A DNA stretch of 64,000 nt from Myxococcota bacterium (GCA_965223415.1 OZ245002.1:4224001-4288000); one strand, 5' to 3'. Counted from the stretch's first letter, positions 13,703-64,000 are shown. Notes: generated by a model not told the origin, from the sequence alone. Numbers and translations are program-made.

Positions 13703-13703
13703 C

Positions 13704-14217: not shown

Positions 14218-14907
14218 GTGAACCCCTTCCCGGCGTTGCGGGGCGATGCCGCGCTGGCCGTCTACCTCGATCTCAAGAGCCCCTACGCGTTCATCGCCTT
14301 GGAGCCCACCCGCGCCATGGCCCGGGCGGCAGGCGTCGCGATCGACTGGCGCCCCTTTACCCTCGACATCCCCAGCTACCTGGGCTCGGCGCGCCTCGAC
14401 GGGAAGGGCCGCGTCGCCGAGAGCCGGCGCACGCCCCAGCAGTGGACCGGCGTGCGCTACGCCTACCGGGACGCGCGTCGCTACGCGAGCCTGCGTGGCA
14501 AGACGCTGCGGGGCACGGTCAAAATCTGGGACTCGAGCCTGGCGGGCATCGCCATGCTGTGGGCCAAGCAGCAGGGCCCCGAGCGCTTCGACCGCTTCGT
14601 CGACGAAGCCTACGCCCGCTTCTGGCGGCGTGAGCTCGACATCGAGGACGCGGGCGTGCTCGAGGCGCTGCTGGCGGAGACCGGCGCCGACGCGGCGGGC
14701 TTCCACGCCTTCGCCGACGGCCCCGGCCGCGCGGCCCACGACGTCCTGAACCAGGCCGCCTTCGACGCCGGCGTCTTCGGTGTCCCCACGTACCTCGTCG
14801 GAGACGAGATGTGGTTCGGCCGCGAGCACTTGCCGCGGGTCGCCTGGCTGCTGGGCGGTGCCGTCGGTCCTGCGCCCGAAGCGGCGAACCGGAGCTTCGA
14901 CCCGTGA
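14218..14907 (+). CDS. DsbA-like / 2-hydroxychromene-2-carboxylate isomerase (GST kappa) family protein
   Basis: DLKSPYAF, GVFGVPTY, WFGREHL. Confidence 0.85.
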   Translation: MNPFPALRGDAALAVYLDLKSPYAFIALEPTRAMARAAGVAIDWRPFTLDIPSYLGSARLDGKGRVAESRRTPQQWTGVRYAYRDARRYASLRGKTLRGTVKIWDSSLAGIAMLWAKQQGPERFDRFVDEAYARFWRRELDIEDAGVLEALLAETGADAAGFHAFADGPGRAAHDVLNQAAFDAGVFGVPTYLVGDEMWFGREHLPRVAWLLGGAVGPAPEAANRSFDP

Positions 14908-15524
14908 GCCGTCTCACCGTCGCGCTGGACCTCCGGCACCCGCTCGCCTACCTGGCCCTCCAGCCCACCGTCGCACTCGCCCGGGAGCTCTCTCTCGACG
15001 TCGACTGGCTGCCGCTCTCGGTGCCAACGCTGCGTCCGCCGAGTGCGCGCCAGGCGGGCGACGACCGGGGCGTTCGCCACCGGCGCTACCGCGCCCAGGC
15101 CATCGCCCGCGAGATCGAGGCCTACGGCGCGGTCCAGGGGCTCGTGCTGCGCGAGCCGTACCGCAGCGCGGAGGTCGATGCGGCGATTCTCGGCTGGCTG
15201 TGGGTCCGGGAGCACCAGCCCGGCCGGCTGCCCGCCTTCCTGGGAGCCCTGTTCGCCGGCTATTGGTCCCTCGATCTCGACGCGGCCCGGGTCGACGCGG
15301 TCGCGGGCCTGGTCGAGACCGTCTCGGCGGATGCCACCGCCTTCCTCGAATGGGCGGTCGGGGAGGGACCGGAGCGTGCCCGCGCAGTGGCTGCCGAGCT
15401 GGAGGAGCGGGGCCTCTTCCAGGTGCCTGCCTACGCCGTGGAAGACGAGGTGTTCTACGGTCGGCAGCACCTGCCCATGATTCGCTGGATCCTCGAGGGA
15501 CGGTCCGGTCCCGGACCCATCTAG
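14904..15524 (+). CDS. Second DsbA-like / HCCA isomerase paralog
   Basis: GTGA overlap with upstream gene; DLRHPLAY, GLFQVPAY, FYGRQHL. Confidence 0.8.
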   Translation: MSRLTVALDLRHPLAYLALQPTVALARELSLDVDWLPLSVPTLRPPSARQAGDDRGVRHRRYRAQAIAREIEAYGAVQGLVLREPYRSAEVDAAILGWLWVREHQPGRLPAFLGALFAGYWSLDLDAARVDAVAGLVETVSADATAFLEWAVGEGPERARAVAAELEERGLFQVPAYAVEDEVFYGRQHLPMIRWILEGRSGPGPI

Positions 15525-15545
15525 GATCCGGGAGGAGGTGGCCCC

Positions 15546-16016
15546 ATGGCAGACCAGGACAGAGCCGCGGTCCGGTTCCCGCCGCCGTTCGTTCCCCTGA
15601 TTGCGCTGGCGCTGGGCGTGGCGCTCCACCGGTGGGTGTGGCCGGCGCCCCTGCCGGTGAAGGGGCTGCTGCGCTGGGGCGCGACCGCGCTGCTCCTGGG
15701 CGGTGGACTGGCACTGATGGGTGCGGCCGCGGGCCTCTTCCGACGCACCGGTCAGGATCCGAAGCCGTGGGTGAGCACGCCGGAGATCATCGAATCCGGC
15801 GTCTACGGATTCACGCGCAATCCCATGTACGTGGCGATGGGTCTGCTGCAGGCGGGACTCGGCGTCGCCCTCGCCAACGGCTGGGTCGTCGGGCTGGTCC
15901 CGGTCACCTGCGCCGTCATCCAGCTCATCGCGATCCGCCATGAGGAGGCCTACCTCGAGCGGAAGTTCGGCAGCACCTACACCGCCTACAAGGCGCGCGT
16001 CCGGCGTTGGCTCTGA
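15546..16016 (+). CDS. Isoprenylcysteine carboxyl methyltransferase family membrane protein
   Basis: GVYGFTRNPMY, EEAYLERKFG..Y..YKARVRRW; GGAGGAGG RBS. Confidence 0.9.
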   Translation: MADQDRAAVRFPPPFVPLIALALGVALHRWVWPAPLPVKGLLRWGATALLLGGGLALMGAAAGLFRRTGQDPKPWVSTPEIIESGVYGFTRNPMYVAMGLLQAGLGVALANGWVVGLVPVTCAVIQLIAIRHEEAYLERKFGSTYTAYKARVRRWL

Positions 16017-16312
16017 CCGTGGCGGCGCCGTGCGAGGGCAACGGCGGCGCCTAGCAGCGGCAGGGTGATGGCGACTGCCCGCTGGGATGGCGGGACGATC
16101 CAGAAGGGGCTGCGAGGGTCGTCCGTCAGGAACGCGAGCCGGCCGCAGGGCGTGGCCTCCGCGCCGGTGAGTCCGGGCCAATCGAGGGTGGTGCAGGTGC
16201 CGTCGTAGGTCCGCAGCGCGGCCCCGACGTCGGCGAGGAGCAGCGCCAGCACGACCAGGAGGCCGGCGGCGAAGCCCTGGGCGGCCGTCCGGAGAGAGGG
16301 GGGAGATTCCAT
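15986..16312 (-). CDS. Hypothetical small membrane protein
   Basis: Two hydrophobic segments flanking a Cys-pair loop; fills the gap between genes. Confidence 0.45.
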   Translation of the reverse strand: MESPPSLRTAAQGFAAGLLVVLALLLADVGAALRTYDGTCTTLDWPGLTGAEATPCGRLAFLTDDPRSPFWIVPPSQRAVAITLPLLGAAVALARRRHGQSQRRTRAL

Positions 16313-16418
16313 GGGGCCCCAGAGAGCAAGCGGCGTGCCGCCGGAGGGGCGCTCTCGGCGGCGCCTGGGTGGCGCGGGCGTTCACCGGATGGCCCCGCCA
16401 TGCACGCGGTGACCGGGC

Positions 16419-17954
16419 TCAGTTGATCCCCTTCTCCATCCCCTCCCAGTAGGGCTTGCGCAGCTTGTACTTCTGCAGCTTGCCGGTGGCGGTGCGCGCC
16501 AGCTCGTCCCGGAACTCGATGGAGGTCGGGCACTTGTAGTGGGCGATCTTCTCCCGGCAGTGGTCGATCAGCGTCTTCTCGTCGGCCTCGCTGCCCGGTG
16601 CCAGCACCACCAGCGCCTTCACGGTCTCTCCCCACTTCTCGTGGGGCACGCCGATCACCGCCACCTCGGCGACGGCGGGGTGGGCGAAGAGCGCGTCCTC
16701 CACCTCGATGGAGGAGACGTTCTCGCCGCCGGAGATGATCACGTCCTTCTTGCGGTCCGTGATGGCGAAATAGCCGTCGTCGTCCAGGTAGCCCCCGTCG
16801 CCGCTGTGGAACCAGCCGTCCCGGATGGCCTCGCCGGTGGCGTCGGGCTGGTCCCAGTAGCCCTCCAGCACGTGGTTGGTGCGGGCCAGGAGCTCGCCCT
16901 CGTCGTCCACGCGCACCCGCACGCCGAGGGCCGGGGCGCCGGCGCGGCCCAGCTTCTGGGCGCGCTCCGCGGGGCTGAGGCCGTCCCACTCGGCGCGGGT
17001 GCGGTTCATCGTCAGGAGAGGCGCCGTCTCGGTGAGGCCGTAGATCTGGATGAACTCCCAGCCGAGCTCGGTCTCCACCCGCTCGATCGTTCGCGTCGGC
17101 GGCGGAGCGCCGGCCACGACGATGCGCACACGGCCGGAGCCGGGGATGGGCCCGTCCCACTCGGCGGCCGCGTCGAGGATCGCAGCGACCACCGCGGGCG
17201 CACCGCACAGCAAGGTGACGCCATGCTCCTCGACGCGGCGCAGGATCTCGGGCCCGTCCACCTTGCGCAGCACGACCTGTCTGGCGCCCATGCCGACCAG
17301 GGCATAGGGCATGCCCCAGCCGTTGCAGTGGAACTGGGGCAGGGTGTGGAGGTAGACGTCCCGGTCGTTGACCCCGCTCTGCCAGCCGAAGACCGCCGCG
17401 TTCAGCCACAGGCTCCGATGGGTCTGCTCCACACCCTTGGGCCGGGCGGTCGTGCCGGAGGTGTAGTTGATCACCGCGGTATGGTCCTCGTCCGGCTCCC
17501 ACGGCTGGGGCTCGGCGCCCGGGGCGAGCATGCGGGCATCGGACTCCTCTCCGAGCACGAAGCGGTGCTTGCACCCGACGCCCGCGAGGGTCTCGTCGAG
17601 CTCCGGATCGACGAGCAGCACGTCGGCGCCGCAGTGGCCGACGATGTACTCCACCTCCTCCCGCGAGAGCCGGAAGTTGATCGGCACGAAGATGCGGCCG
17701 TGCCCGCTCACACCCCAGAAGCAGGTGAGCAGGCGGGACGCGTTCTGGGAGACCATGGCCACGCGCCCGCCGACCGGCAGGCCCAGGCGGTCGAGGCCCG
17801 CGCCCATGGCCTGGGAGAGGGCGCCCAGCTCCCGGAAGGTCGTCTCGCCCAGGGAGGGGGCCGGCTGGTCCGGCTCGTCGACGAAGGCCACCCGATCCGG
17901 GTAGACGGCGAGGGCGCGGTCGAGGTGGTCGCGAATGGTCAGCGGGACCCGCAT
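16419..17954 (-). CDS. AMP-binding acyl-CoA synthetase
   Basis: YTSGTTARPKG, YGLTET, DRKKDVIISGGEN, TGKLQK. Confidence 0.95.
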   Translation of the reverse strand: MRVPLTIRDHLDRALAVYPDRVAFVDEPDQPAPSLGETTFRELGALSQAMGAGLDRLGLPVGGRVAMVSQNASRLLTCFWGVSGHGRIFVPINFRLSREEVEYIVGHCGADVLLVDPELDETLAGVGCKHRFVLGEESDARMLAPGAEPQPWEPDEDHTAVINYTSGTTARPKGVEQTHRSLWLNAAVFGWQSGVNDRDVYLHTLPQFHCNGWGMPYALVGMGARQVVLRKVDGPEILRRVEEHGVTLLCGAPAVVAAILDAAAEWDGPIPGSGRVRIVVAGAPPPTRTIERVETELGWEFIQIYGLTETAPLLTMNRTRAEWDGLSPAERAQKLGRAGAPALGVRVRVDDEGELLARTNHVLEGYWDQPDATGEAIRDGWFHSGDGGYLDDDGYFAITDRKKDVIISGGENVSSIEVEDALFAHPAVAEVAVIGVPHEKWGETVKALVVLAPGSEADEKTLIDHCREKIAHYKCPTSIEFRDELARTATGKLQKYKLRKPYWEGMEKGIN

Positions 17955-18002
17955 AGGCTGCCTCCTGCTTCTGGCTGGATCGGCAGGGTAACCGAGGACG
18001 GG

Positions 18003-19820
18003 TCAGCTGCCCGAGCGGTAGGCGCGGGCCTGGATCTCGTACAGCTCCGCGTAGGTGCCGCCGTGTGCCATCAGCTCCTCGTGGCTCCCCACCTCCACGA
18101 CCCGCGCGCCGTCCAGCACGACGATCCGGTCCGCCATGCGCACGGTGCTGAAGCGGTGGGAGACGAGCAGGGTGATGCGCCCGTCCGGGGCGAGCTGTTC
18201 GGAGGCGCCGTCCCCGGCGACCGCCGCGTAGCGTTCGAAGAGGGCGTGCTCGGTCTCGGCGTCGAGGGCGGCGGTGGGCTCGTCGAGGGCGAGCAGCAGG
18301 GGCCGGTCGCGCATGAAGCCGCGGGCCAGGGCGAGCTTCTGCCACTGGCCGAAGCTCACCTCGACGCCCTCGGGCCAGGTGGGGCCGAGCTGGGTGTCGA
18401 GGCCCGCGACGAGCTGCTCTACCACGTCGTCGGCGCCGGCCCGTCCGACGGCGGCGCCGACCGCCGGCCGCTCCTCGATGCGGGGGACGTCGCCGACGCC
18501 CACGGTCTGCAGGGCGCGGAACTCGAAGCGGAAGAAGTCCTGGAAGGCGCCGGCCAGGCGCGTCCTCCACGCCTCGGCGGGCATGCGTGCCAGGTCGGCT
18601 CCGTCCACCAGGATGCGTCCCTTCGAGGGCCGGTAGAGGCGGGCGAGCAGCTTCACCAGCGTGGTCTTGCCGGCGCCGTTCTCGCCCACGATGGCCACGA
18701 CCGTGCCCGCCGGCAGGTGCAGATCCACGTCCTCCAGGACGAAGCGATCGGTGCCCGGATAGGCGAAGGACACGCCCTTGAAGCGGATGCCGTCCTTCAG
18801 CGCTTCCGGGACCGGGACGTCCGCGTCCTCCTCCAGCCGGGCTGCGTAATCCTCGAGCCAGGCCATGCGCCGTGAGCCGTCCATCCAGATCCCGCGCAGG
18901 AAGCCGATCTCGCCGACGGTGGCGCCGATGTAGGCCGAGAGCCGCGAGCCGGCGGCGAGCACGAGCAGCACGTTGCCCGGGGTCTCTCCGAGGCCCGAGG
19001 AGACGAACACCACCGCGCCGACGAAGGCGGCGCCGAAGACCAGCCAGGCCAAGGCGTGCCAGACCGCGCTGCCCCAGCGCGCGCCGGCCACCGGGCCGTA
19101 CCAGCGCTCCCAGGCCTCCCGGCGGCGGAGGGCCAGGCGCTCGCCCAGGCCCGTCACCCGCACCTCCTTGCCCGGCGGCGCGGTGGTGGCGAGGTCGAAG
19201 AGGTGGCGCGCCAAACGGTTCGCCGGAGCGCCCCGCTCCTCGGCGGCGCGCTCCACGCCCGGGCGCCAGGTGGAGGTGAGCACGGTCGGCAGGGCGAAGG
19301 CCGCCAGCAGCACCAGCACCGGATGGATCGAGACCAGGAGCGCCACGGTCACGCCGAGCCGCAGGATCCAGCCGCCGGTGCTGAACAGCGACATGTACAT
19401 GTGGTCGAGGACGAAGACCTGGTCCCGCAGCACCGCCAGCCGGTCGAGATGCTCCGGGCGCTCGTGGTGCTCGATCGTCGACACCGAAGCCTGCAGGCGG
19501 GCCACGTGGGTCTCGAGGGCGATGGTCACCTGGTCGCGGAAGCGGCGCTGGGTGCGGTCGCTGATCACCCGCAGGAACCAGGTGGCGGCGGCCGACACAC
19601 CCAGGCCGACGGCGGCGACGCTGACGAGGGTGCCGTCGTCGCCCAGTACGCCGTCCGCCAGTAGCTTGAGCCACAGGGCGAGGAGCGCATCGGGCAGCGC
19701 CGCGAGGAGGGACAGACCGAAGGCCACGACGAGGAGCCTCGGCTCGGCCTCGTAGCCGCGCTTCAGCGCTCGCCACATCGAGGAGAGGGCCGGCGGCAGC
19801 TCGTCGTCAGTCGAGGACAT
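18003..19820 (-). CDS. ABC exporter half-transporter (TMD + ATPase)
   Basis: GENGAGKT, variant signature VSFGQ, LALDEPT, SHRFST. Confidence 0.92.
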   Translation of the reverse strand: MSSTDDELPPALSSMWRALKRGYEAEPRLLVVAFGLSLLAALPDALLALWLKLLADGVLGDDGTLVSVAAVGLGVSAAATWFLRVISDRTQRRFRDQVTIALETHVARLQASVSTIEHHERPEHLDRLAVLRDQVFVLDHMYMSLFSTGGWILRLGVTVALLVSIHPVLVLLAAFALPTVLTSTWRPGVERAAEERGAPANRLARHLFDLATTAPPGKEVRVTGLGERLALRRREAWERWYGPVAGARWGSAVWHALAWLVFGAAFVGAVVFVSSGLGETPGNVLLVLAAGSRLSAYIGATVGEIGFLRGIWMDGSRRMAWLEDYAARLEEDADVPVPEALKDGIRFKGVSFAYPGTDRFVLEDVDLHLPAGTVVAIVGENGAGKTTLVKLLARLYRPSKGRILVDGADLARMPAEAWRTRLAGAFQDFFRFEFRALQTVGVGDVPRIEERPAVGAAVGRAGADDVVEQLVAGLDTQLGPTWPEGVEVSFGQWQKLALARGFMRDRPLLLALDEPTAALDAETEHALFERYAAVAGDGASEQLAPDGRITLLVSHRFSTVRMADRIVVLDGARVVEVGSHEELMAHGGTYAELYEIQARAYRSGS

Positions 19821-21603
19821 CGAGCTCCTCTCCTTCCTCGTCTTCGCCGAAGCGCTGTGCCTGGAGCTCGAACATCGTGCAGTAGCGACCGCCCAGGGCC
19901 ATCAGCTCGTCGTGGCTGCCCAGCTCGACGACCTTGCCGTGCTCGAGCACACAGATGCGATCGGCGTGCCGTACGGTCGAGAAGCGGTGGGAGATCAGGA
20001 TCGTCGTCGTGTGCCGGGTGGCCGCGAGGATGCGCTCGAAGATCTCCGCCTCGCCGCGCACGTCGAGCTGGGCGGTCGGCTCGTCGAGGAGCACGAGCCC
20101 GGCGCCCTGGCGCACGGCGCAGAGCGTCCGGGCGAGGGCGATGCGCTGCCACTGCCCTCCGGAGAGGTCGGTGCCGCCCTCGTAGCCCCGCGCAAGGATG
20201 GTATCGAGATCGGCCAGGCTGCCGGCGCCGGCCTCGGCGAGGGCCGCACGCACGACCTCGTCGGGGGCGCCCGCCGGCGCGACGTTCTCGCGGAGCGACA
20301 GCTCGAAGCGGATGAAGTCCTGGAAGACCGCCGTGACCCGCAAGCGCCAGCTCTCGATGTCGAGGGTCGTGAGGTCGAGGCCGTCCACCTCGATCGCGCC
20401 GGACTGGGGCTCGTAGAGCCGGCAGAGGAGCTTCGCGAGGGTCGTCTTGCCCGCGCCGTTCTGGCCGACGATGGCGAGGGACGAGCCCGCTGGGATCGTG
20501 AGGTCGAAGCCCGCGAGGACGGGCTCGCCGGTGGCCGGGTAGGCGAAGCTGACGTCCCGGAAGCGGATCTCCCGGGCGGGCAGGCCCTCGGCGGAAGCCT
20601 CGCCGCGGGTGAGCGCACCACCCCGGGCCATGCTCTCCCGGAGCCGCACGACGGCGGCGGCCGGCGCGGCGGCCCCGTCCAGGGCCCAGGAGAGGCCGCC
20701 GAACGCGATCATGCTGGTGCTGATGGCGGCGCTGGCGAAGGTGACGAGACGGTCCAGGGCAAGCGCGCCGTCGGACGCGGCTGCGGCCATCGAAGCGAAC
20801 ACGATCAGGTTGGCGCCGAGCACGAGCAGCAGGCTCCACACGACCGGCCGCTCGCGAAGCCGCGTGGCCTCCCAGCGCAGGTCATGGAGCTGGCGCCGCC
20901 GCGCGCGGAACCGCTCGACGGTCCAGCCCGCCAGGCCGAACAGCCGCAGCTCCTTCGCCGCGGGCGGCTCGACCGCGAGCCTGTAGGTGTAGTCGGCGTG
21001 GCGCTGGGCCTCGCGCACCTCGTCGGTGTTGCGGTCCCTCCACACGGCGCTCTCGCGCAGCAGCCAGTGGGTCGCCAGCCAGGCGCCGCCGAGCACGAGG
21101 GGCGCCCACCAGGCGTAGGCCGCCAGCACCGCGGCGGAGGCGAGCCCGCCCACCATCTCGACCAGGCCCGAGGCGATGAAGTCCATGGAGATGTTGAGCG
21201 GGGGGCCGCTGATGCCGAGATCGAAGTCGCGGCCCATGGTGAGATCGTTCGTGAGCTCGGGATTCTCCAGGTGGCCCATGCCCGGCGGGCCGACACAGGC
21301 TCGCGAGAGCTGGTCGTAGAGCCAGGCGGCAGTTCGGCTTCCGAGGTTGGCGGAGAGCGCCTGGTGCAGGGGGGCGAGCACCTGGAGCAGGACGAACACC
21401 ACGCCCACGAGGGCGAGGGGCGCAGCCAGGCTCTCTTCCCGCTCGACCGCGCCGATCAGCCCGCCCATGGCGATGGCGAAGAAGGCGGGCAGCAGGCCGC
21501 GGAGAACCAGGACCGTCCACCAGCCGAAGGCGAGGGCGCGGTCCGCCGAGGGCAGCAGGGCGAAGAAGCCCCATTCGTCGCTCGCCCTCAGGCGCCCGAT
21601 CAC
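19807..21603 (-). CDS. ABC exporter half-transporter (TMD + ATPase)
   Basis: GQNGAGKT, LSGGQ, LLDEPT; GTG start with GGAGGAGG RBS. Confidence 0.92.
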   Translation of the reverse strand: MIGRLRASDEWGFFALLPSADRALAFGWWTVLVLRGLLPAFFAIAMGGLIGAVEREESLAAPLALVGVVFVLLQVLAPLHQALSANLGSRTAAWLYDQLSRACVGPPGMGHLENPELTNDLTMGRDFDLGISGPPLNISMDFIASGLVEMVGGLASAAVLAAYAWWAPLVLGGAWLATHWLLRESAVWRDRNTDEVREAQRHADYTYRLAVEPPAAKELRLFGLAGWTVERFRARRRQLHDLRWEATRLRERPVVWSLLLVLGANLIVFASMAAAASDGALALDRLVTFASAAISTSMIAFGGLSWALDGAAAPAAAVVRLRESMARGGALTRGEASAEGLPAREIRFRDVSFAYPATGEPVLAGFDLTIPAGSSLAIVGQNGAGKTTLAKLLCRLYEPQSGAIEVDGLDLTTLDIESWRLRVTAVFQDFIRFELSLRENVAPAGAPDEVVRAALAEAGAGSLADLDTILARGYEGGTDLSGGQWQRIALARTLCAVRQGAGLVLLDEPTAQLDVRGEAEIFERILAATRHTTTILISHRFSTVRHADRICVLEHGKVVELGSHDELMALGGRYCTMFELQAQRFGEDEEGEELDVLD

Positions 21604-54064: not shown

Positions 54065-55993
54065 ATGAAGCTGCGAAGCGTGCTCCTGTCCGCGCTCACC
54101 CTCGTGCTGCTGGCCGGCTGCGCCCAGCTCGGCATGCACTGGATGGCCGAGGCCCGCCCGGCCCCGCGGATCGAGGCCCCGGCACCGCCCGGCGAGGCCA
54201 CGCCCTGGACCGGCCTGGCGGCCCTGGACGCCCCCGAGGACTTCCACTTTGCCGTCGTCTCGGACCGCACCGGCGAGCACCGCGCCGGCGTCTTCGCCGC
54301 CGCCATGCCCAAGCTCAACCTGCTCCAGCCGGCCTTCGTGGTGAGCGTCGGAGACCTGATCGAGGGCTACACGGACGACCGCGCACGCCTGGCCGAGGAG
54401 TGGGACGAGATCGAGGGCTTCGTCGACGGCCTGCGCATGCCCTTCTTCTACGCGGCCGGCAACCACGACATGAGCAACCAGGTGATGGCCGAGACCTGGC
54501 GCGACCGCTTCGGCCCTTCCTACTACCACTTCCGCTACAAGGGCGCGCTGTTCGTCGTGCTGAACAGCGAGCTGTTCGGGATGGTCCACGACCCCCGGAA
54601 GTCGGTGCCCGGCCCGTGGACCCAGGCCGAGCAGATGGCGTGGGTCGAACAGGTCCTCGCCGAGAACGCCGACGTCCGCTGGACCTTCGTCTTCGTCCAC
54701 CAGCCCCTCTGGGACGCGCCCCAGATCCACCCGGACTGGCTCAAGGTCGAGGAGCTCCTCGGCGAGCGGGGTTACACGGTCTTTGCCGGGCACTACCACC
54801 GCTACACCGAGCACGTCCGCTCGGGACGCCGCTTCATCACCCTGGCCACCACGGGAGGTGGCAGCCAGATGCGCGGCCTGCCGTGGGGCGAGTTCGACCA
54901 CGTCGCCTTCGTGCGCATGACCGAAGCCGACGGCGACGAACCGGTGGTCGCGAACGTGATGCTGGACGGCGTCCAGGGCGCCGACGTCCGCACCGCCGAC
55001 CTCCGCGCCCTGGTCGACACGATGGCCGGCGCCGTGGCCGTGCTACCCCTGCGCGGGGCCGGTCGCACCTTCCGCAGCGCCACCGCCCGCTTCGAGATCA
55101 CCAACGGGCTCGCGCAGCCCTTGGACGTGGAGGCGCACTTCGACGCGGGCCGCGACCTGGCGCCGGAGCTGGACCGGGCCACCCGCCGACTCGCTCCCGG
55201 CGCGGTCGAGGTGGTGGAGGTGCCGCTGCGCGCGCGCCAGCCGCTCCGCTACGAGGAGCTGGCACCGGCCCATGCCCACTTCACCCTGCGCGCGGCGGGG
55301 CCCGGCGGCGAGCCGGTCGAGATCGAGCAGCAGCGCGCTCTCGTCCCCGACGGTCCCTTCGCGATCACCCGCAGCGACGAGGCCGTGACCGTCGACGGGG
55401 ATCTCGCGGAATGGGATGGCCTGCGCTTCCGGGTCGACGCGCCCGCCCACGTGGAAGGCCACGGTCGCTACCACGGGGCCGAGGACGCGAGCTTCCGATT
55501 CGATCTGCGCCGGGACGCGAGCCATCTCTACGTGGCGGTCGAGGTGACGGACGATTCCATCGTCGCCTCCTCCCACGAGATCGCCCGGGAACAGGACGGT
55601 GTGCAGCTCTCCCTCGATCCGCGCCCGGCACCGGAGCGCAACCAGAACGGCAACCTCTTCGCGTTGATCCGCAGCGGTGCGCTGGCGAAGATGGTTACCG
55701 CGTTCCTCACCGTCGAAGAGCCGCGCCCGGATCCGATCCTGGCGCTGTTCGCCGGCGGCGCCGAGCCGGTCCACCTCCACGCGGCACGCCGGACGCCCGA
55801 CGGCTACGCCACCGAGGTGGCGATCCCGATCGCAGCGCTGGAAGAGCGGGCCGGCGGCGAGTGGGACGGCCTGCGCGTGAACGTCACCGTGTCCGACTTC
55901 GACGAAGGCGAGTCCGGCCACAACACGCTCTCGTGGCGGCCGAGCCGCTTCTCCCCCGGGACTGCCGAGGGCGCCGGCACCTTCGGGCTCTAG
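54065..55993 (+). CDS. Lipoprotein: calcineurin-like metallophosphoesterase plus C-terminal CBM9/DOMON-like domain
   Basis: LAGC lipobox, SD, GDLI, GNHD, HQP, GHYH; VDGDLAEW...LYVAVEVTDD...EVAIP. Confidence 0.82.
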   Translation: MKLRSVLLSALTLVLLAGCAQLGMHWMAEARPAPRIEAPAPPGEATPWTGLAALDAPEDFHFAVVSDRTGEHRAGVFAAAMPKLNLLQPAFVVSVGDLIEGYTDDRARLAEEWDEIEGFVDGLRMPFFYAAGNHDMSNQVMAETWRDRFGPSYYHFRYKGALFVVLNSELFGMVHDPRKSVPGPWTQAEQMAWVEQVLAENADVRWTFVFVHQPLWDAPQIHPDWLKVEELLGERGYTVFAGHYHRYTEHVRSGRRFITLATTGGGSQMRGLPWGEFDHVAFVRMTEADGDEPVVANVMLDGVQGADVRTADLRALVDTMAGAVAVLPLRGAGRTFRSATARFEITNGLAQPLDVEAHFDAGRDLAPELDRATRRLAPGAVEVVEVPLRARQPLRYEELAPAHAHFTLRAAGPGGEPVEIEQQRALVPDGPFAITRSDEAVTVDGDLAEWDGLRFRVDAPAHVEGHGRYHGAEDASFRFDLRRDASHLYVAVEVTDDSIVASSHEIAREQDGVQLSLDPRPAPERNQNGNLFALIRSGALAKMVTAFLTVEEPRPDPILALFAGGAEPVHLHAARRTPDGYATEVAIPIAALEERAGGEWDGLRVNVTVSDFDEGESGHNTLSWRPSRFSPGTAEGAGTFGL

Positions 55994-57354
55994 TCGATGC
56001 CGAGGCGCTGCATCCACCGGTAGAGGGTGGTGCGGTCGACCTGGAGGCGCGCGGCGGCCTCCTGCCGGCTGCCGCCGCAGGCGGCGAGAGCGGAACGGAT
56101 GCGCTCGGCGGTGACGCGGTCGAGGGTCGCGCGCAGGCTCTCGTCCTCAGGCGCCGCCGTCGGCGGCTCCCCCGCCGCCGCTGTGCCGGCGCCGCCCGGG
56201 AGCAGGTCCTCGAGCTCGATCCGCGAGCCGCGGGCCAGCACCACGCCACGCTCGATGGCGTTCTCGAGCTCTCGCGCGTTGCCGGGCCACCCGTGGCTCC
56301 GCATCCACGCCTCGGCCTCGTCGCTCCAGCCGTCCAGGGGAGGCGTCCGGTCCCGCGCCGCGGAAGCGAAGAAGCGCCGGGCGAGGGGCAGGACGTCTTC
56401 CGGCCGCTCCCGGAGCGGCGGCAGGTGGATCGGGATCACCGCGAGCCGGAAGTAGAGGTCCTCCCGGAAGCGCCCCGCTTCGACCTCGGCGGGCAGGTCG
56501 CGGTTGGTGGCGGCGACGATGCGCGCGTCGACCTCGTGCTCGGTCTCGCCGCCCACCCGCACGAGCCGCTTCTCCTGGAGCACCCGCAGCAGCTTGGCCT
56601 GGAACTCCAGGGACACCTCGCCCATCTCGTCGAGGAAGAGGGTCCCGCCGTTCGCCCGCTCGAACAGGCCGGCTCGGGCGCGCTCCGCTCCCGTGAAGGC
56701 GCCACGCTCGTGGCCGAAGAGCTCGCTCTCCAGCACGCCCGGGGCCAGTGCCTTGCAGTTCACCGCGACGAAGGGGCCGCCGACCCGCTCCGAGAGCACG
56801 TGCACGGCGCGGGCGATGCGCTCCTTGCCCGTGCCGCTCTCGCCGGTGACGAGCACGGTGGCCTCGCTGCGTGCCGCCCGGCGGACGATGTCCATCACCT
56901 CGGCCATCATCGGGCTCTCGGCGACGATGGCCTCGCTGCCCTGCTCCCGGCCGAGCTCCGCGCGCAGGTGGCGGTTCTCGCGGCGCAGCCGGGTGTGTTC
57001 CAGGGCACGCTTCACGAGGGCGCGGAGGCCGTCGTTGTCGAAGGGCTTCTCGACGTAGTCGAAGGCGCCTAGCTGCACCGCGCGCACGGCGGTCTCGATG
57101 CTCGCGTGGGCGGTGAGGACGACGACCGGCAGGTCCGCGTCGATCTCCCGCAGCCGCTCGAGCACGGCGATGCCGTCCATGCCGGGCATGCGGAGGTCGG
57201 TCAGCAGCAGGTCGAAGCGCCCCTCCGTGAGGGCGGCGAGGGCCGCTTCCGGCGCGTCGAAGCCCACGGCTTCGTAGCCCTCGCGGCGCAGGAGCATCTC
57301 GAGGATGGCAACGAGCCGGGCCTCGTCGTCGAGGATGGCGATGCGGGGCTTCAA
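55990..57354 (-). CDS. Sigma-54-dependent response regulator (NtrC family)
   Basis: Receiver (LDDE, TDLRMP, KP), GESGTGKE, GAFTGA, FLDE, WPGNAREL, Fis HTH; TTG start overlapping the kinase stop. Confidence 0.95.
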   Translation of the reverse strand: MKPRIAILDDEARLVAILEMLLRREGYEAVGFDAPEAALAALTEGRFDLLLTDLRMPGMDGIAVLERLREIDADLPVVVLTAHASIETAVRAVQLGAFDYVEKPFDNDGLRALVKRALEHTRLRRENRHLRAELGREQGSEAIVAESPMMAEVMDIVRRAARSEATVLVTGESGTGKERIARAVHVLSERVGGPFVAVNCKALAPGVLESELFGHERGAFTGAERARAGLFERANGGTLFLDEMGEVSLEFQAKLLRVLQEKRLVRVGGETEHEVDARIVAATNRDLPAEVEAGRFREDLYFRLAVIPIHLPPLRERPEDVLPLARRFFASAARDRTPPLDGWSDEAEAWMRSHGWPGNARELENAIERGVVLARGSRIELEDLLPGGAGTAAAGEPPTAAPEDESLRATLDRVTAERIRSALAACGGSRQEAAARLQVDRTTLYRWMQRLGID

Positions 57355-58316
57355 GCGGCCTCCTGCCGGCGCCACGGCAGGCTGAGCTCGAAGCAGGCGC
57401 CGCGGCCGCTCGGGCCCGCGCCGCCGCCGGGCACGAGCCGCAGGCTGCCGCCGTGGGCCCGGGCGATCTGCGCCGCCATGGCCAGGCCGAGGCCCGTGCC
57501 CTCCGCCTTGGTCGTGAAGAACGGCTCGAAGAGCTTGTCGCGGGCGTCCGGGGGAACGCCGGGGCCGTCGTCGGCCACCCGCAGGTGGAGGCCCCGCTCG
57601 TCGCGGGATCCCTCCAGGCGAACCCGTCCTTCGGGCGCGACCGCCTCCGCCGCATTCGTCAGCAGGCACAGGAGCACCTGGGAGACGAGACCCGGATCCA
57701 CGTCGATGCTCGTCCCCGCCAGGTCGTCCCTGCGGTCCGCGAACGCGACCCGGTGGGCCTCGAAGGGGGCCTGCGCCAGCTCGACGGCGCGCTCCACCAC
57801 CGCGTCGAGGGAGCTCGGCTGGGGCTCCAGCGTGGTGGGGCGGGCGAAGGCGAGCAGGGCGGTGATGAGGCCGTTCAGCCGGTCCGCCTCCTCCACCACG
57901 AAGGCGCAGGCGCGGTGGGCGTCGTCGCCGGAGTCGAACTGCTCCTGCACCATGGCCGCGGAGGCGCGCATCACGCCCAGGGGGTTGCGCACCTCGTGGG
58001 CGATGCCGGCGGCGAGCCGGCCGATCGCGGCCAGCTTCTCGTTCTCGAAGGCGCTGCGTTCGGAGGCCGCCAGGGCCTCTCCCTGGGCGCGGATCCGCTC
58101 CGCGTCCCGTCGCGCCCGCTCCCGGGCGCGATACAGGGCGCCGGCCAGGCCGCCCATCACGGTGAGGTTGAAGGTGAAGGTCGCGCCCACGAGCCAGGTC
58201 GCGTCGGCGCCGCCGAGCCGCATCTCCACGCCCGTCCAGGCCAGGGCCAGGGTGTCCACCAGCCCGAGGGCGGCTCCTGTCAGCGCGCCCCACAGGGCCC
58301 AGCGCCGTTCCGTCAC
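57351..58316 (-). CDS. Membrane sensor histidine kinase
   Basis: Two TM helices, AHEVRNPL, NAAEA, DDGPG, FFTTK, GTGLGL; start approximate. Confidence 0.92.
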   Translation of the reverse strand: MTERRWALWGALTGAALGLVDTLALAWTGVEMRLGGADATWLVGATFTFNLTVMGGLAGALYRARERARRDAERIRAQGEALAASERSAFENEKLAAIGRLAAGIAHEVRNPLGVMRASAAMVQEQFDSGDDAHRACAFVVEEADRLNGLITALLAFARPTTLEPQPSSLDAVVERAVELAQAPFEAHRVAFADRRDDLAGTSIDVDPGLVSQVLLCLLTNAAEAVAPEGRVRLEGSRDERGLHLRVADDGPGVPPDARDKLFEPFFTTKAEGTGLGLAMAAQIARAHGGSLRLVPGGGAGPSGRGACFELSLPWRRQEAA

Positions 58317-58413
58317 GAGGTGACTCCTCTCGATCGAAGGGTAACGCCAGGGCATCCTCCGCAAGCCGCATGCCACGGCGCGGAGGCCCGCCGGGCCCGT
58401 CCGGGCGTGCCCC

Positions 58414-58452
58414 GTTGCAGCGCTGCCACGGCCCGTGTTGCAGGGCTGCAAC
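58414..58452. promoter_or_regulatory. Tandem palindromic enhancer (UAS) sites, probably for the adjacent NtrC-family regulator
   Basis: GTTGCAG-N2-CTGC(C/A)AC at 58414-58429 and 58437-58452. Confidence 0.65.
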
Positions 58453-58491
58453 CCGCCCGGACCGGGAGCGGGCCGGGGAGCTCCCCGCGGC

Positions 58492-58507
58492 CGGCACGCC
58501 GCTTGCT
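58492..58507 (+). promoter_or_regulatory. Sigma-54 -24/-12 promoter
   Basis: cGGCACG-ccgc-TTGCT matches TGGCACG-N4-TTGCW. Confidence 0.8.
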
Positions 58508-58543
58508 CTTCAACGCGGCACACGCCCACCCTTGGAGGAACCC

Positions 58544-58918: not shown

Positions 58919-59380
58919 GTGGAGAAGGGCGACCTGGTCGAAATCGAAGCCATCAAGCAGCTCAAGGCCCGCTACTTCCGCCTCCTGGACCAGAAGCGCT
59001 GGGAGGAGTGGGGCCAGGTCTTCAGCGAGGACGCGGAGCTCGATACGACCCAGGAGGCGCCGAACGCCCGGGCTTCCGGCCGCGACGCCATCGTCGAGAT
59101 GGTGAGCACGGCGGTCGGCGCCGCGGTGACGGTCCACCACGGCCACATGCCGGAGATCGAGATCACCGGGCCGACCACGGCGAGCGGCACCTGGGCGATG
59201 GAGGACTACCTCGAGTTTCCGGGCGATCCGCCGCCGCTGGTGGTGCACGGCCGGGGCCACTACTTCGAGGAGTACGAGAAAGGCGGCGACGGCGCCTGGC
59301 GGATCAAGTCGCTCACCCTGCGTCGGCTCTGGCTCCAGCACAGCGGGAAGCGGACCTTCCCGCCTCAAGGCCTGCCCTGA
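58919..59380 (+). CDS. NTF2/SnoaL-like protein (BaiE-like)
   Basis: IEAIKQLKARYFRLLD, HHGHMPEI, GTWAMED, WRIKS. Confidence 0.88.
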   Translation: MEKGDLVEIEAIKQLKARYFRLLDQKRWEEWGQVFSEDAELDTTQEAPNARASGRDAIVEMVSTAVGAAVTVHHGHMPEIEITGPTTASGTWAMEDYLEFPGDPPPLVVHGRGHYFEEYEKGGDGAWRIKSLTLRRLWLQHSGKRTFPPQGLP

Positions 59381-60317: not shown

Positions 60318-60956
60318 CTAGGCGAGCTCCAGCAGGTTCCGGGCCAGGTCGACGCCGTCCTTCGCCTGGGCGCCCCAGCCGTCCGCGCCTTGGTCGTCGG
60401 CCCACTGCTGGGTCGTCACGCCTCCGCCGACGATCACCGGGTACTTGTCCCGGACCTTCATCTCCTGGAGCAGGTCGAGCAGCTCCGCGAACTTCTCGAG
60501 GGCCGGGGCGAAGACCACCGACACCGCGATCATGTCCGCGCCGCTCTTCTCCGCCGTCTCGTAGAAATCCCAGGGCGTGTTCTTCTCGCCCATGTCGATC
60601 ACGTCGAAGCCGCCGATCGAGAGCAGGGTTCCCACCAGGTTCTTGCCGATGTTGTGCTGGCTGAGGAGCGTGCCCAGCACGATCTTCCGATTGTTCTTCG
60701 GCGTCTCGCCCCGGGGAAGCGCCGCCTCGATCAACGGGATGCAGGTCTTGGCGGTCACGCCCGCGCGCACCAGGTCGAGCACGATGGCCTTGCGGGCGGC
60801 GAAGCGATCGCCCACGTCGCTCAGGCCCTGCATCACGCCTTCTTCGAGCAGCTGCATGGGGTCGAGGCCAGCGGCCAGGAGCTCGCGGGTCATCTCCGCG
60901 GCCGGCTCCGGCTGGGTCTCGCTCACCTTCCGTCGCAGGTCTCCGATCGTCGCCAT
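60318..60956 (-). CDS. Corrinoid (B12-binding) methyltransferase partner protein, MtmC/MttC-like
   Basis: Cap domain GLSDVGDRF, HNIGKNLV, GFDVIDMG, VIVGGG, GADGW. Confidence 0.85.
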   Translation of the reverse strand: MATIGDLRRKVSETQPEPAAEMTRELLAAGLDPMQLLEEGVMQGLSDVGDRFAARKAIVLDLVRAGVTAKTCIPLIEAALPRGETPKNNRKIVLGTLLSQHNIGKNLVGTLLSIGGFDVIDMGEKNTPWDFYETAEKSGADMIAVSVVFAPALEKFAELLDLLQEMKVRDKYPVIVGGGVTTQQWADDQGADGWGAQAKDGVDLARNLLELA

Positions 60957-60966
60957 TCATCCTCTC

Positions 60967-62325
60967 CTAGGCGTCGGTCCAGGTGGGGTAGTCCAGTCCG
61001 AGCTCCCGGAAGATCCGGGTGAACTTCCGGTACTGCAGGACGAGCTCCTCGCGGGGGCGGAGGGTCGTCAGGTCGTAGAGCTTGTCGAGCCCGACCGGGG
61101 GCGGAGTGGGCTCGCGCTCCGCCGCATTGATCTTTCGGATGATCTCCACGCCCTCTTGCGGAGTGAGGGTCGCGGCGGCCCGGGCGATCTCTCCCGCCCA
61201 GCGGCACTCGAGGCCCGTCGAGCCCCCTGCCAGCCACAGAGCCTCCATCCCGGAGATGCAGGCATTGATGCAGTGGGTGGCCGTGTCGTACCAGGCGTCG
61301 TCCGAGAAGGCGGCGCCGGGCTGGCCCGTACTGCCGAAGGAAACCCAGGGGAGCTTCAGGTTCCGCTCCGCCGCGAGCGCCGCCGCCGAGTTGCACCAGG
61401 TGATGTCGGCCCCGACGTAGCTGCCGTGGATCGACATCGACATGGCCTGGGTGAGTGCGCCGCCCGAGTAGCAGAGCATGCCCAGGGTGTGGGCGATGAT
61501 CTCGATGGCCGCCTGCTCCGGCCCGGTCACGTAGCCGTACATCGCCGGGGAGCTGCTCATCCATGGCTCGATGCCGTGTTGGTCGCCGAAGAAGGCCAGG
61601 TTGAAGCGGTCGTAGTTGATCCGCATGTCCTGGAGGGTCTGCACCGGCAGCGTGCAGTTCCGAGCGTTGTACATGCCGGGACCGAAGGTGCTCATCATCG
61701 CGAGCGGCGTCGTGGCGCTCATCGGGATGCCGAAGAAGAGGCCCGGCTTGCCTGCCCAGGCCGCCGCCTCGTTCATCGCGCGGGCCTCGGTCTGGCACAC
61801 GACGGTCTGGGCCGGCGTGTCGAGGATGTTCTTCAGCTCGCCCACGCCGAGCAACGGGATCGGGATCACGCCGTCGCAGGTCGGCTCCTGCATCGACGTC
61901 ATGGCGTAGAGCTTGTAGCGGTCGACGTTCTTGGTGAGCGCGCCCGCCGGGAACCAGGTGAAGGGATGCCGGGCGTCGCCCGGCGCCCGGGGCGAGAGGG
62001 TGATGGCCTCGCGCCCGGATCCCAGGGTGATCTCGTGGCGGGCGGCGGCGATGGCCTCGAGGACCTCCTCCTCGGTGAACTTGACGATCCGCCGGGTGTC
62101 CTTGCAGTAGAGGCCCACCTCGAGCAGCAGGTCGAGGCCCGCGCGGAAGATCGCGTCCGCCAGGTCGGGGTCGATCATCACCGGGTCTTCGCCGTTCCAT
62201 TCGATCCGGTGCCGGGCCTGCACCTCGGCCATGACGGTGGGGAAGAGCTCGGTCTCGAACTTCTCTTCGATCATGATCGGCCCGGTGCCCGAGCGCTCGA
62301 CCGCCTGCCAGAGGAGCTTGCCCAT
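60967..62325 (-). CDS. Monomethylamine:corrinoid methyltransferase (MtmB) homolog without pyrrolysine
   Basis: GLYCKDTRRIVKFTEEEV, LGSGREA, AGKPGL, TGLECRWAGEIARA, YDLTTLRP, ELGL resemble Methanosarcina MtmB; no in-frame TAG. Confidence 0.8.
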   Translation of the reverse strand: MGKLLWQAVERSGTGPIMIEEKFETELFPTVMAEVQARHRIEWNGEDPVMIDPDLADAIFRAGLDLLLEVGLYCKDTRRIVKFTEEEVLEAIAAARHEITLGSGREAITLSPRAPGDARHPFTWFPAGALTKNVDRYKLYAMTSMQEPTCDGVIPIPLLGVGELKNILDTPAQTVVCQTEARAMNEAAAWAGKPGLFFGIPMSATTPLAMMSTFGPGMYNARNCTLPVQTLQDMRINYDRFNLAFFGDQHGIEPWMSSSPAMYGYVTGPEQAAIEIIAHTLGMLCYSGGALTQAMSMSIHGSYVGADITWCNSAAALAAERNLKLPWVSFGSTGQPGAAFSDDAWYDTATHCINACISGMEALWLAGGSTGLECRWAGEIARAAATLTPQEGVEIIRKINAAEREPTPPPVGLDKLYDLTTLRPREELVLQYRKFTRIFRELGLDYPTWTDA

Positions 62326-62336
62326 GGAGGTCTCCT

Positions 62337-63518
62337 TCAGCCCTGCAGGTAGCACTCGCCCTCGCGCATGCAGCGCATGAGGGCGGCGCATTCCTGGCCG
62401 ACGTAGCGGATGTGCTGGGGCAGCAGCCACGGCATCACGTCCACGATGTACCAGGAGAGATCCTCGGGGTCGCTGAAGGCGTCCTCCCACTGGATGTCGC
62501 TGGCATCGTGGTTGAGCAGCATCGCCCGGGCCTTGCCGCCGTCGTTGCCGAACAGGAAGACGCCGGAGGGATCGACGTGGAGGGGCAGGGGGCGCTTGAA
62601 CCAGTCTCCCAGCACACGCCAGGAGCGCGCGAAGTCCCGGGCCGGGAGCACGACCCGTTGGAGGAGGAAGGTGGCCGTACCCGCTTCGACCCCGAGACGC
62701 CGGGCCTCCTCCCGGTGTCGGCGCACGAGGGCCGTCGCTTCGAGGGGCCAGTCCGTGTAGACGTCGCAGCGCTGCAGCACGTAGGAGGCGAAGAGCTTGT
62801 CCTCGACGATCTCGAAGTCTGCCGACGCGAGGTTCGCGTCCCGCGCACCGGGGAGGAAGCACCGTTCGAAATCGTCGCGGGTGAAGTCCAGGAAGGCAGG
62901 GAACTCGTCCCTCGCCTCCTTCTCGCCATTCTCGAGGACCGGTGTCTCGACGGTCACCAGGGCGTTCAGCGCCACGGCGGCGCGCTCGCCGGGGGCGCTC
63001 TCCCGCTCGCTGCCGATCCGGAGCGCGAGGTTCAGGAGCTGGAGCCAGCCGTCGGCGACGCTGCTGGTGAAGATCGGGAAGCTCGTCTTGCGCGAGAGGA
63101 AGACCTTCCGCTCGGGGATTTCGGGCGCGGTCAGGCGGAGGCCCGTGCGCTCTCCGGACCGGAAGGGCAGGTCGCGGATCGACGCGGCCAGGTCGCCTTG
63201 AGGCTTCTCGCGCAGGTCCGATATCTGGACGTCCGACCGCAGGGCATCGACGGGGGTGGCGCCGAGCTCCGGCGAGAGCCGCCCACGAGGGCCCGCCAGC
63301 CGGCCGTCCTCGTCGAGGCCCTGCTTCCAGAGGACGACCAGGGCGTCGCCGGTGGCCTTCCGGTCGTCGCCCGCGAGCACCAGGTGGCGGACGTCCGGGT
63401 GCGCTGCCAGCTCTCGCAGCAGCTGCTCCAGCTCGGAGCGGGAGCCGAGCGGCGCCGAGAACGCGATGCGCTCTCCTTCGAGATGGGTGCCACAGACGAC
63501 GACGTCACGAGTGGGCAT
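62337..63518 (-). CDS. Fusion of MtrA-like, degenerate thymidylate synthase-like and DUF4346-like domains
   Basis: AAHPDVRHLVLAG...TGDALVVLWKQGLDEDGRL; VADGWLQLL...KLFASYVLQRCDVYTDWP; DPSGVF...HIRYVGQE...YLQG; AGGAGG RBS. Confidence 0.65.
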   Translation of the reverse strand: MPTRDVVVCGTHLEGERIAFSAPLGSRSELEQLLRELAAHPDVRHLVLAGDDRKATGDALVVLWKQGLDEDGRLAGPRGRLSPELGATPVDALRSDVQISDLREKPQGDLAASIRDLPFRSGERTGLRLTAPEIPERKVFLSRKTSFPIFTSSVADGWLQLLNLALRIGSERESAPGERAAVALNALVTVETPVLENGEKEARDEFPAFLDFTRDDFERCFLPGARDANLASADFEIVEDKLFASYVLQRCDVYTDWPLEATALVRRHREEARRLGVEAGTATFLLQRVVLPARDFARSWRVLGDWFKRPLPLHVDPSGVFLFGNDGGKARAMLLNHDASDIQWEDAFSDPEDLSWYIVDVMPWLLPQHIRYVGQECAALMRCMREGECYLQG

Positions 63519-64000
63519 GACGATCCTCCTGGCCTCTGCGGGTGCAGAAGGCACGGATGAACTGGTCTTCCAGCCGTTCGAGCACGGCTTCGTGGGCCGC
63601 CTCCAGGCCCTGCTCGACCCAGTGGGTCAGCTCCACCTGCTTGAGGGCGAGCATCTTGCGGACCAGCAGGTCCGGGTCGTCCGGGACGTAGAGGCCCTCT
63701 GCGATGCCGCGTTCGAACAGCGCGCGCGGGATCGCGGCGCCCTCGTCCCAGATCGGCGACTCCCCGGCCGCGTTGGCGAGCCTCGACGCCCAGCCGTAGC
63801 CGTCGCGGCTGCACATTCGCAGGAAGTCCGGGCGCTCGAGGAAGTAGCGGGCGCCTTCCCGCAGCACCGCCAGGTGGGCGGGGAGGGTGTCCGCGTGCGC
63901 GTCGTGGGCGGCTCGTATGCAGGCGAGGAATTCGCGCATCCGCACCCGGTGGATCTCGCGGAAGAGCGAGTCCTTTCCGTCGATGACGCCGTAGAGGGTC
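63505..64000 (-). CDS. TetR/AcrR family transcriptional regulator (5' end beyond window)
   Basis: Frame open to the window edge, TLYGVIDGKDSLF end of the TetR HTH; FERGIAEG. Confidence 0.75.
   Translation of the reverse strand, partial: TLYGVIDGKDSLFREIHRVRMREFLACIRAAHDAHADTLPAHLAVLREGARYFLERPDFLRMCSRDGYGWASRLANAAGESPIWDEGAAIPRALFERGIAEGLYVPDDPDLLVRKMLALKQVELTHWVEQGLEAAHEAVLERLEDQFIRAFCTRRGQEDRHAHS

Follow-up and report, generated by a model that had tools for sequence, protein, structure and literature searches.

The window analyzed here is a stretch of 64,000 nucleotides from a Myxococcota bacterium (GCA_965223415.1 OZ245002.1:4224001-4288000). Positions 60318 to 64000 hold a minus-strand operon of four genes that is a candidate corrinoid-dependent methyl-transfer system. 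The first gene encodes a TetR-family regulator (63505 to beyond 64000), of which 164 amino acids, the C-terminal ligand-binding part, are visible. The second encodes a three-part protein composed of MtrA-like, ThyA-like, and DUF4346 segments (62337–63518, ATG start, 393 amino acids) that is the candidate second methyltransferase (MT2) and is referred to below as the third protein of the system. The remaining two genes encode a homologue of the methyltransferase MtmB without pyrrolysine (Pyl), which is the candidate substrate:corrinoid methyltransferase (MT1) (60967–62325, 452 amino acids), and its cognate corrinoid protein, consisting of a cap and a Rossmann B12-binding domain (60318–60956, 212 amino acids). 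The stop codon of the TetR gene and the start of the fusion gene lie in a 14-nucleotide overlap (63505–63518). The intergenic gaps are 11 nucleotides between the fusion and MtmB genes (62326–62336) and 10 nucleotides between the MtmB and corrinoid genes (60957–60966). An earlier note on this DNA had described four co-directional, tightly packed genes with this overlap and these gaps, and the coordinates match. An AGGAG-type Shine-Dalgarno-like site is located 6 to 8 nucleotides 5' of each of the three downstream starts. Simple scans found neither a promoter nor a convincing terminator inside the operon, and its 3' end faces a convergent plus-strand gene about 20 nucleotides away. The helix-turn-helix portion of the TetR protein lies past base 64000. 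The visible 164 residues are 60 to 75% identical to orthologues with PF00440, and PF00440 (TetR_N) was present in all nine of the TetR orthologues scanned whole. Hundreds of homologues at 50 to 87% identity indicate that the four operon genes are real genes.

The MtmB homologue was assigned by profile, by its match to an MtmB of solved structure, and by active site comparison. PF05369 covers residues 6 to 444 of the 452 (E 3.9e-44, 151.6 bits against a cut-off of 25), and the Methanosarcina barkeri MtmB (1l2q) matches the protein with an E value of 6e-33. There is no in-frame TAG or other stop codon in the window gene. Pyl202 of 1l2q aligns with Gly199, and the Pyl-equivalent position is Gly in all 22 aligned sequences. 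The residue two positions before this Gly is F or W in every one of the 21 cassette members. Judged by these alignments, the window protein is a member of the MtmB family but is not Pyl-MtmB, the monomethylamine methyltransferase proper. According to PMC13044021, MtqB, reported in 2026, is the only characterized non-Pyl MtmB and demethylates tetramethylammonium and choline onto its cognate corrinoid protein; the function of the other non-Pyl MtmBs, proteobacterial ones included, is described there as unknown. Because MtqB uses these two compounds, our best guess for the substrate of the window enzyme, by analogy, is a quaternary ammonium compound. The aromatic residues near the Pyl-equivalent Gly appear at least compatible with such a substrate.

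The corrinoid protein contains PF02607 (E 1.3e-7) and PF02310 (E 7.4e-16). The closest NCBIfam models are MtgC, which scores best, and TIGR02370 (pyl_corrinoid), and the protein falls below the cut-off of all of them (125.2 against 310 for MtgC and 115.5 against 215.3 for TIGR02370). The canonical D-x-H-x-x-G motif is replaced by S-Q-H-N-I-G (S-x-H-x-x-G) in 19 of 19 cassette orthologues, with the His retained. A second, unrelated corrinoid protein in one of the loci described below (L008) has the canonical Asp. This Asp belongs to the Asp-His-Ser relay of MetH, and its position is the one now occupied by Ser in the cassette proteins. The exchange may change His-on/His-off control or redox tuning. 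Together, the MtmB homologue and the corrinoid protein can on good grounds be assigned as the substrate-demethylating half of a corrinoid methyltransferase system, as their family memberships suggest.

The conservation of the cassette was determined in 24 loci, each with a gene for a fusion-protein relative. The set has one genome per species and does not contain the source genome, and synteny was scored by tblastn of the four window proteins against the loci. The MtmB and corrinoid genes are directly beside the fusion gene in 21 of the 24, and in the remaining three (L019, L020, and L023) the contig ends within about 75 nucleotides of the fusion gene. This neighborhood survey shows that the gene association singled out in the earlier note is conserved in other genomes, in 21 of 21 informative loci. 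Nineteen loci share the gene order and strand of the window, and in the two from Dehalococcoidia the MtmB-corrinoid pair and the fusion gene are convergent. In 15 loci, the gene immediately upstream of the fusion gene is an orthologue of the window TetR, and a different TetR is nearby in L008, L010, and L012. The hosts belong to Myxococcota/'Deltaproteobacteria', three gammaproteobacterial groups, Binatia, and Dehalococcoidia. The fusion-protein family had 238 matches among the candidates scored; most are about 460 amino acids long and nearly all are metagenomic. No constant gene is common to the flanks outside the cassette (10 kb on either side per locus), so the cassette behaves as a self-contained module. 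In the MtmB tree, the window sequence groups with the Myxococcota loci with a support of 99/99; the gammaproteobacterial copies occur in three places, and the backbone is unresolved.

Three members of the locus set have individual peculiarities. A frameshift splits the MtmB gene at L010:3257-4619, and an in-frame stop interrupts the corrinoid gene at L015:12672-13307; either could be an assembly error or a decaying copy. The MtmB of L018, from a metagenome-assembled genome (MAG) labeled Spirochaetaceae, is sister to that of the Myxococcota locus L021 with end branches of 0.042 and 0.028, a placement that suggests mis-binning or recent transfer.

The third protein has approximate domain borders at residues 1 to 125 for the MtrA-like Rossmann domain, 126 to 310 for a degenerate thymidylate-synthase fold, and 311 to 393 for DUF4346. 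The N-terminal domain matches PF04208 (MtrA) at residues 6 to 81 (E 1.3e-4, 22.1 bits), which is under the 25-bit cut-off. The family profile matches the MtrA structures 5laa and 5l8x with an E value of 2.5e-8, and the AlphaFold2 (AF2) model predicts a Rossmann-like domain. In MtrA, His84 is the cobalt ligand and is described in PMC4915002 as "mostly conserved" in bacterial homologues. In the cassette family, His84 falls in a two-residue deletion, and, when aligned with the family profile, the Gly-His of 5laa (chain positions 83–84) forms an insertion. Ten of the 24 loci lack the MtrA-like domain (L012, L013, L014, L016, L017, L018, L020, L021, L022, and L024). In these loci, the matching part of the query starts no earlier than residue 124, and the fusion gene follows immediately after TetR. 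Two of them, L013 and L016, fall inside the window's own Myxococcota clade, which indicates a dispensable domain whose loss was either repeated or recent. The three-domain fusion proposed in the earlier note is thus present in the window protein and does not hold as a conserved unit. By this comparison, the ThyA fold and DUF4346 together make up the core that is conserved in the third protein.

The ThyA assignment is marginal in the window protein alone (TIGR03283, E 0.076) and comes from family-level and structural comparisons. The family profile matched thymidylate synthases in the Protein Data Bank with an E value of 1.3e-8, and 1.5e-16 in a second comparison. Foldseek searches with two AF2 models matched ThyA with E values of about 1e-8 to 1e-7, a probability of 1.00, and TM scores of 0.40 to 0.54, the best (0.54) being to 9iqu. 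The core model, which was built on 100 sequences, has a pLDDT of 90.8. In the first full-length model, the C-terminal domain had low confidence, and it became confident in the later core model with a deeper alignment. Both models returned only ThyA-fold matches, and none for the DUF4346 part alone. The C-terminal domain was recognized by PF14251 (DUF4346, 'PterinBD-DUF4346') at residues 316 to 392 (E 2.5e-9, 38.2 bits against a cut-off of 29.6). The domain calls made in the earlier note were therefore borne out, with DUF4346 above its cut-off, MtrA just below it, and ThyA recognized by profile and Foldseek.

In ThyA, Asp169 and Trp83 contact the folate, Trp80 and Trp83 belong to the folate loop, Cys146 is catalytic, and Cys146 and Asn177 lie on the nucleotide side. 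The column of Escherichia coli ThyA Cys146 is D, S, N, or A in the main clade of the family, or is deleted. Asn177 is replaced by Glu in the main clade, including the window protein, and the phosphate-binding Arg positions of ThyA are not conserved in the family. The equivalent of Asp169 is invariant, and Trp83 is retained wherever that segment exists. The window protein is without about 65 residues of the ThyA-like domain, which cover the Trp80/83 loop and the catalytic Cys segment, and about a quarter of the aligned relatives have the same loss. These alignments indicate that the ThyA fold is present and that the thymidylate-synthase catalytic residues are not retained in the main clade.

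Some relatives differ at these positions. Two Dehalococcoidia members, L022 (467–1456) and L024 (10001–10900), keep the ThyA Cys in an A-P-C motif, with Asn in L022 and Asp in L024 at the Asn177 position. The distant relatives P0259, P0261, and P0266, which are 476 to 490 amino acids long, keep both Cys and Asn, the Cys likewise in A-P-C, and such Cys-keeping ThyA/DUF4346 proteins may be active pyrimidine-modifying enzymes. In the Atlas, this architecture also appears in clusters that are made up mainly of Cyanobacteriota, Nanobdellota, Minisyncoccota, and phages, with scores of 0.79 to 0.89 that serve as leads only. The residues kept in L022, L024, and the three distant relatives would fit an alternative in which the third protein still acts on a pyrimidine nucleotide or a similar small molecule, which would be the last acceptor of the methyl group from the corrinoid protein. 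Such a reaction would be a C-methylation that depends on cobamide and uses the scaffold of thymidylate synthase; in principle, CH3-Co(III) could be attacked by a C5 carbanion that the Cys activates. The main clade, to which the window protein belongs, has lost both the Cys and the Asn and does not conserve the phosphate-binding Arg positions, and a nucleotide acceptor is the least likely of the explanations considered here.

Conservation in the third protein is concentrated in its C terminus. In the 100-sequence alignment, 13 of the 17 invariant columns lie in the C-terminal domain (14 with the boundary residue D316). The invariant polar residues include D316, H369, Y372, E376, Y390, and Q392, and they constitute a candidate ligand site of DUF4346. 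The only near-invariant cysteines are C377 and C389, which are lost in distant relatives. A search of a 1.84-billion-protein library with the C-terminal 94 amino acids gave 26 matches, all of them from the family itself or from ThyA-bearing relatives. No other DUF4346 architecture occurred among the 26, and the Atlas search without the ThyA clusters gave no usable match.

The second half of the proposed system was sought with Pfam scans at E ≤ 1e-6 of 43 open reading frames (ORFs) from the window and 327 flank ORFs (113, 111, 8, and 95) from the 24 loci. ORFs were called at a minimum of 90 amino acids in the first pass and 180 in the second, and the sequence visible to these scans was 10 kb on either side per locus and the 64 kb of the source genome. 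No PF00809/MtrH-type methyltransferase was detected among these ORFs, and the third protein contains neither a PF00809/MtrH nor a URO-D/MtaA domain. The sole URO-D match is part of another corrinoid cluster, distinct from the cassette, in L021. This cluster (L021:2454-6659, minus strand, in a Myxococcota MAG) is about 3 kb upstream of the cassette and consists of a corrinoid protein, the URO-D protein, an unknown ORF, and a RACo with a 2Fe-2S domain. As the earlier note had stated for the window, no canonical MT2 is visible beside the cassette, and the same is true of every locus flank. In the window, neither a Pfam scan of 39 ORFs nor tblastn with the L015 RACo as query detected a RamA/RACo activator. 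RACo-type activators are near the cassette in L015 and L021 only. The absence of an activator noted earlier thus applies to the window and to 22 of the 24 flanks and fails in these two loci. The window likewise gave no tblastn match to the methylenetetrahydrofolate reductase (MTHFR), MetK, and DUF1638 proteins or to the recurrent F420-dependent oxidoreductase described below.

The missing activator leaves an activation or maintenance role vacant in addition to that of MT2. The third protein could fill it as an accessory factor for cobamide loading, as a chaperone, in protection or reactivation in an oxygen-exposed host, or as a scaffold, with the MtmB homologue and corrinoid protein working as proposed above and a housekeeping MT2 located elsewhere. 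The loss of the ThyA catalytic residues and the large deletions in the window copy and a quarter of its relatives would fit such a role. A C-terminal domain that was ill-defined in the first AF2 model would be expected of a partner-binding element, although it became confident with the deeper alignment. However, neither an ASKHA ATPase nor an Fe-S signature of the known activators was found in the third protein, and C377 and C389 are not kept in distant relatives. In addition, the MT2 gene of known bacterial systems is usually a neighbor of those for MT1 and the corrinoid protein, and no MT2 was found in the 21 loci with the complete gene set. We consider an accessory role unlikely, although it is the strongest competitor of an MT2 function.

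The genes near the cassette are suggestive of a link to folate and the methyl cycle, each in a minority of the loci. In L008, a Binatia MAG (4718–20488), genes for S-adenosylhomocysteine hydrolase, an ArsR-fused S-adenosylmethionine (SAM) methyltransferase, MTHFR (E 3.6e-93), and MetK are directly upstream and co-directional. MtmB is duplicated in tandem in this locus, and another, distant MtmB/corrinoid pair is present, yet there is one fusion gene. Upstream in L015 are genes for a 2Fe-2S ferredoxin, RACo, and MetK, and L007 has MTHFR 4 kb upstream. The methyl-cycle genes of L008 and the MetK of L015 could serve a biosynthetic direction, in which a methyl group from CH3-tetrahydrofolate or another donor would pass to the corrinoid protein and then through the MtmB-like enzyme to an amine acceptor, giving a methylated amine or osmolyte. 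In principle, methyl transfer by corrinoid systems can run in either direction, and many of the source MAGs are marine, where methylated osmolytes are common. Against synthesis, the methyl-cycle neighbors are found in two to three of the 24 loci, and a TetR repressor encoded on the same transcript is seen more typically in inducible operons for catabolism. The MtmB-family enzymes available for comparison, Pyl-MtmB and MtqB (the latter described in PMC13044021), work as demethylases. A biosynthetic cassette is very unlikely on this evidence.

Other genes recur near the cassette and could be processors of an amine product. A TIGR03619-type F420-dependent luciferase-like monooxygenase (LLM) oxidoreductase scored above the cut-off in five loci (L002:6895-7830, L005:9166-10101, L008:18433-19368, L012:13525-14424 on the minus strand, and L015:398-1285 on the minus strand). 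P450 genes recur in four loci and diaminopimelate (DAP)-dehydrogenase-like genes in two, and SnoaL-like genes also recur. The LLM, P450, and DAP-dehydrogenase-like genes raise the alternative that the third protein has an indirect role, processing the substrate or the demethylated product or acting in regulation, with unlinked canonical enzymes finishing the methyl transfer. The ThyA, MtrA, and DUF4346 ancestry of the protein fits C1, pterin, or corrinoid chemistry and not amine oxidation, and the protein is the sole invariant partner of the MtmB homologue and the corrinoid protein. An indirect role is accordingly improbable, less so than synthesis and more so than an accessory function.

Several further features of the neighborhoods were recorded. 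The recurrent TIGR03619-type LLM has weak similarity to the methylene-tetrahydromethanopterin reductase Mer. The window has a different LLM, of the TIGR03620 type (6011–7135), and an F420H2-dependent quinone reductase (13707–14165), both far from the operon. The cassette of L008 is followed by a second distant pair of corrinoid and MtmB-like genes, an F420-type LLM, and a DAP-dehydrogenase-like gene. A SnoaL_4-family gene is located within 1 to 1.5 kb of the cassette in the window (58919–59377, plus strand), in L012 (L012:12988-13434), and in L016 (L016:8586-8969). A sigma-54-dependent response regulator and a histidine kinase are encoded at 55993–58529 of the window, on the strand of the operon and about 2 kb past its downstream end, and a sigma-54 activator also follows the cassette in L009. 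The window also encodes COX1, cytochrome c, a fatty-acid desaturase, P450, and acyl-CoA ligases, in agreement with the respiring, lipid-degrading host described in the earlier note.

The reading we favor is that the third protein is a methyl-corrinoid:pterin methyltransferase within a TetR-controlled, corrinoid-dependent methyl-transfer module, and we give it a probability of roughly 0.45. It is the most economical interpretation because the protein is the sole invariant partner, the MT2 slot is empty, its ancestry is that of a folate enzyme, and its losses are on the nucleotide side. The single fusion gene beside multiple MtmB copies in L008 is counted in its favor as modular sharing. In the first step, the non-Pyl MtmB homologue would move a methyl group from the substrate onto Co(I) of the dedicated corrinoid protein, as expected of its family; the substrate would most likely be a quaternary ammonium compound and would be activated without pyrrolysine. 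In the second step, the ThyA-fold/DUF4346 protein would act as MT2 and transfer the methyl group of CH3-Co(III) to a pterin, a role to which synteny, domain ancestry, and exclusion point. The acceptor would most likely be tetrahydrofolate, and the CH3-tetrahydrofolate would enter the housekeeping MTHFR/MetH reactions and the SAM cycle. In the third step, an activator encoded elsewhere would reductively reactivate the oxidized corrinoid. Translational coupling of the TetR gene to the operon would make expression substrate-inducible.

Several observations weigh against an MT2 function. The deletion of about 65 residues takes the Trp80/83 loop with it, so a ThyA-type folate site cannot be intact in the window copy. 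The Dehalococcoidia members that keep the Cys hint at a nucleotide-directed ancestral chemistry. An MtrA-like domain that is without His84 and dispensable gives no support for corrinoid binding. The earlier note called DUF4346 pterin-associated, and this link consists of the Pfam name and the co-occurrence with ThyA. We did not find a Rosetta-stone fusion to a B12 domain among the forms of 841 to 2400 amino acids, which is weak evidence. Finally, a canonical MT2 and activator could sit elsewhere in the 5.8-Mb genome, of which the 64 kb of the window were visible alongside the flanks of the other loci.

The closest known counterpart of the cassette is the MtqB/MtqC/MtqA system of Methanococcoides methylutens, which likewise has a non-Pyl MtmB-family MT1 encoded beside a small cognate corrinoid protein. 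In this tetramethylammonium- and choline:coenzyme M (CoM) system, MT2 is the URO-D-type MtbA/MtqA, which methylates CoM in a strict anaerobe (PMC13044021), and the MtqB clade has a conserved Met/Cys/aromatic pocket. The cassette has no URO-D/CoM context, its third gene encodes a ThyA-fold/DUF4346 protein, and its hosts have genes for aerobic respiration; the comparison with MtqB is by description and not by sequence.

The glycine betaine system MtgB/MtgC/MtgA of Desulfitobacterium belongs to the MttB superfamily and has a TIM-barrel MT1, a corrinoid protein, and an MT2 that methylates tetrahydrofolate. In the MttB-superfamily systems, MT2 is a PF00809/MtrH-type pterin-binding TIM barrel and the activator (RamA/RACo) is usually linked. 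The cassette appears to follow the same three-component logic, and its corrinoid protein scores best with MtgC models. It differs in that MT1 is MtmB and not MttB, and in that the corrinoid protein is below all NCBIfam cut-offs and has Ser for the motif Asp. In the CmuA/CmuB chloromethane:tetrahydrofolate system of aerobic methylotrophs, CmuA combines MT1 with a corrinoid domain in one protein, and MT2 is the MtrH-like CmuB. Both this system and, as proposed, the cassette carry out corrinoid methyl transfer to tetrahydrofolate in an aerobe, a likeness drawn by description and not by sequence.

The third protein shares the common core fold and the invariant Asp169 equivalent with ThyA and its relatives, which are the dCMP/CMP hydroxymethylases and the phage dCMP hydroxylase AfhB. 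Unlike ThyA, it has an added conserved DUF4346 domain, it is without Cys146 and Asn177, and its gene is tied to a B12 methyltransferase pair. A further counterpart is MtrA, which is the corrinoid subunit in the Mtr complex of methanogens and has cytoplasmic homologues (PMC4915002). The N-terminal domain of the third protein aligns with the MtrA structures, but without His84.

Literature searches found no paper on DUF4346, PF14251, PterinBD, or IPR025595, and none that ties MtrA-like or ThyA-like proteins to corrinoid methyltransferases. A description of this MtmB clade in Myxococcota, Halieaceae, Steroidobacteraceae, or Binatia was not found either, in searches that did not cover supplementary tables. 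With the same restriction, the searches agree with the earlier note that the system is undescribed. The 'mlp' clusters of Kountz and Balskus (PMC10418091) were considered and set aside; they concern SCMT homologues, and MtmB, MtrA, thymidylate, and pterin are never mentioned. MAG surveys simply list mtmB matches (PMC11264602); the same MAG study notes that some corrinoid systems have no second methyltransferase and suggests 'an undescribed protein'. The type of system, with an MT1, a corrinoid protein, and an MT2, is already known. The novelty lies in the third component, in the Ser-His variant of the corrinoid protein, and in hosts that are aerobic.

Corrinoid-dependent demethylation of methylated amines is regarded as a trait of methanogens and strict anaerobes. 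The cassette occurs in widespread, mostly uncultured respiring bacteria represented by MAGs from marine, groundwater, and sediment sources. More tentatively than the MT2 assignment itself, the third protein may represent an unrecognized class of methylcobamide:pterin methyltransferase that arose from a ThyA-like ancestor by losing the nucleotide site and keeping the pterin site. Together with the Pyl-free MtmB and the Ser-His corrinoid variant, it might form a portable three-enzyme module that lets oxygen-respiring Myxococcota, Gammaproteobacteria, and Binatia feed the methyl groups of quaternary amines into the folate/SAM pool. To our knowledge, the second methyltransferases of corrinoid systems have two folds. 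If the third protein is MT2, cobalamin-to-pterin methyl transfer would have a third structural solution. A function would then be assigned to DUF4346, and the cassette would provide a gene marker for hidden methylamine and quaternary-amine turnover in oxic and suboxic habitats.

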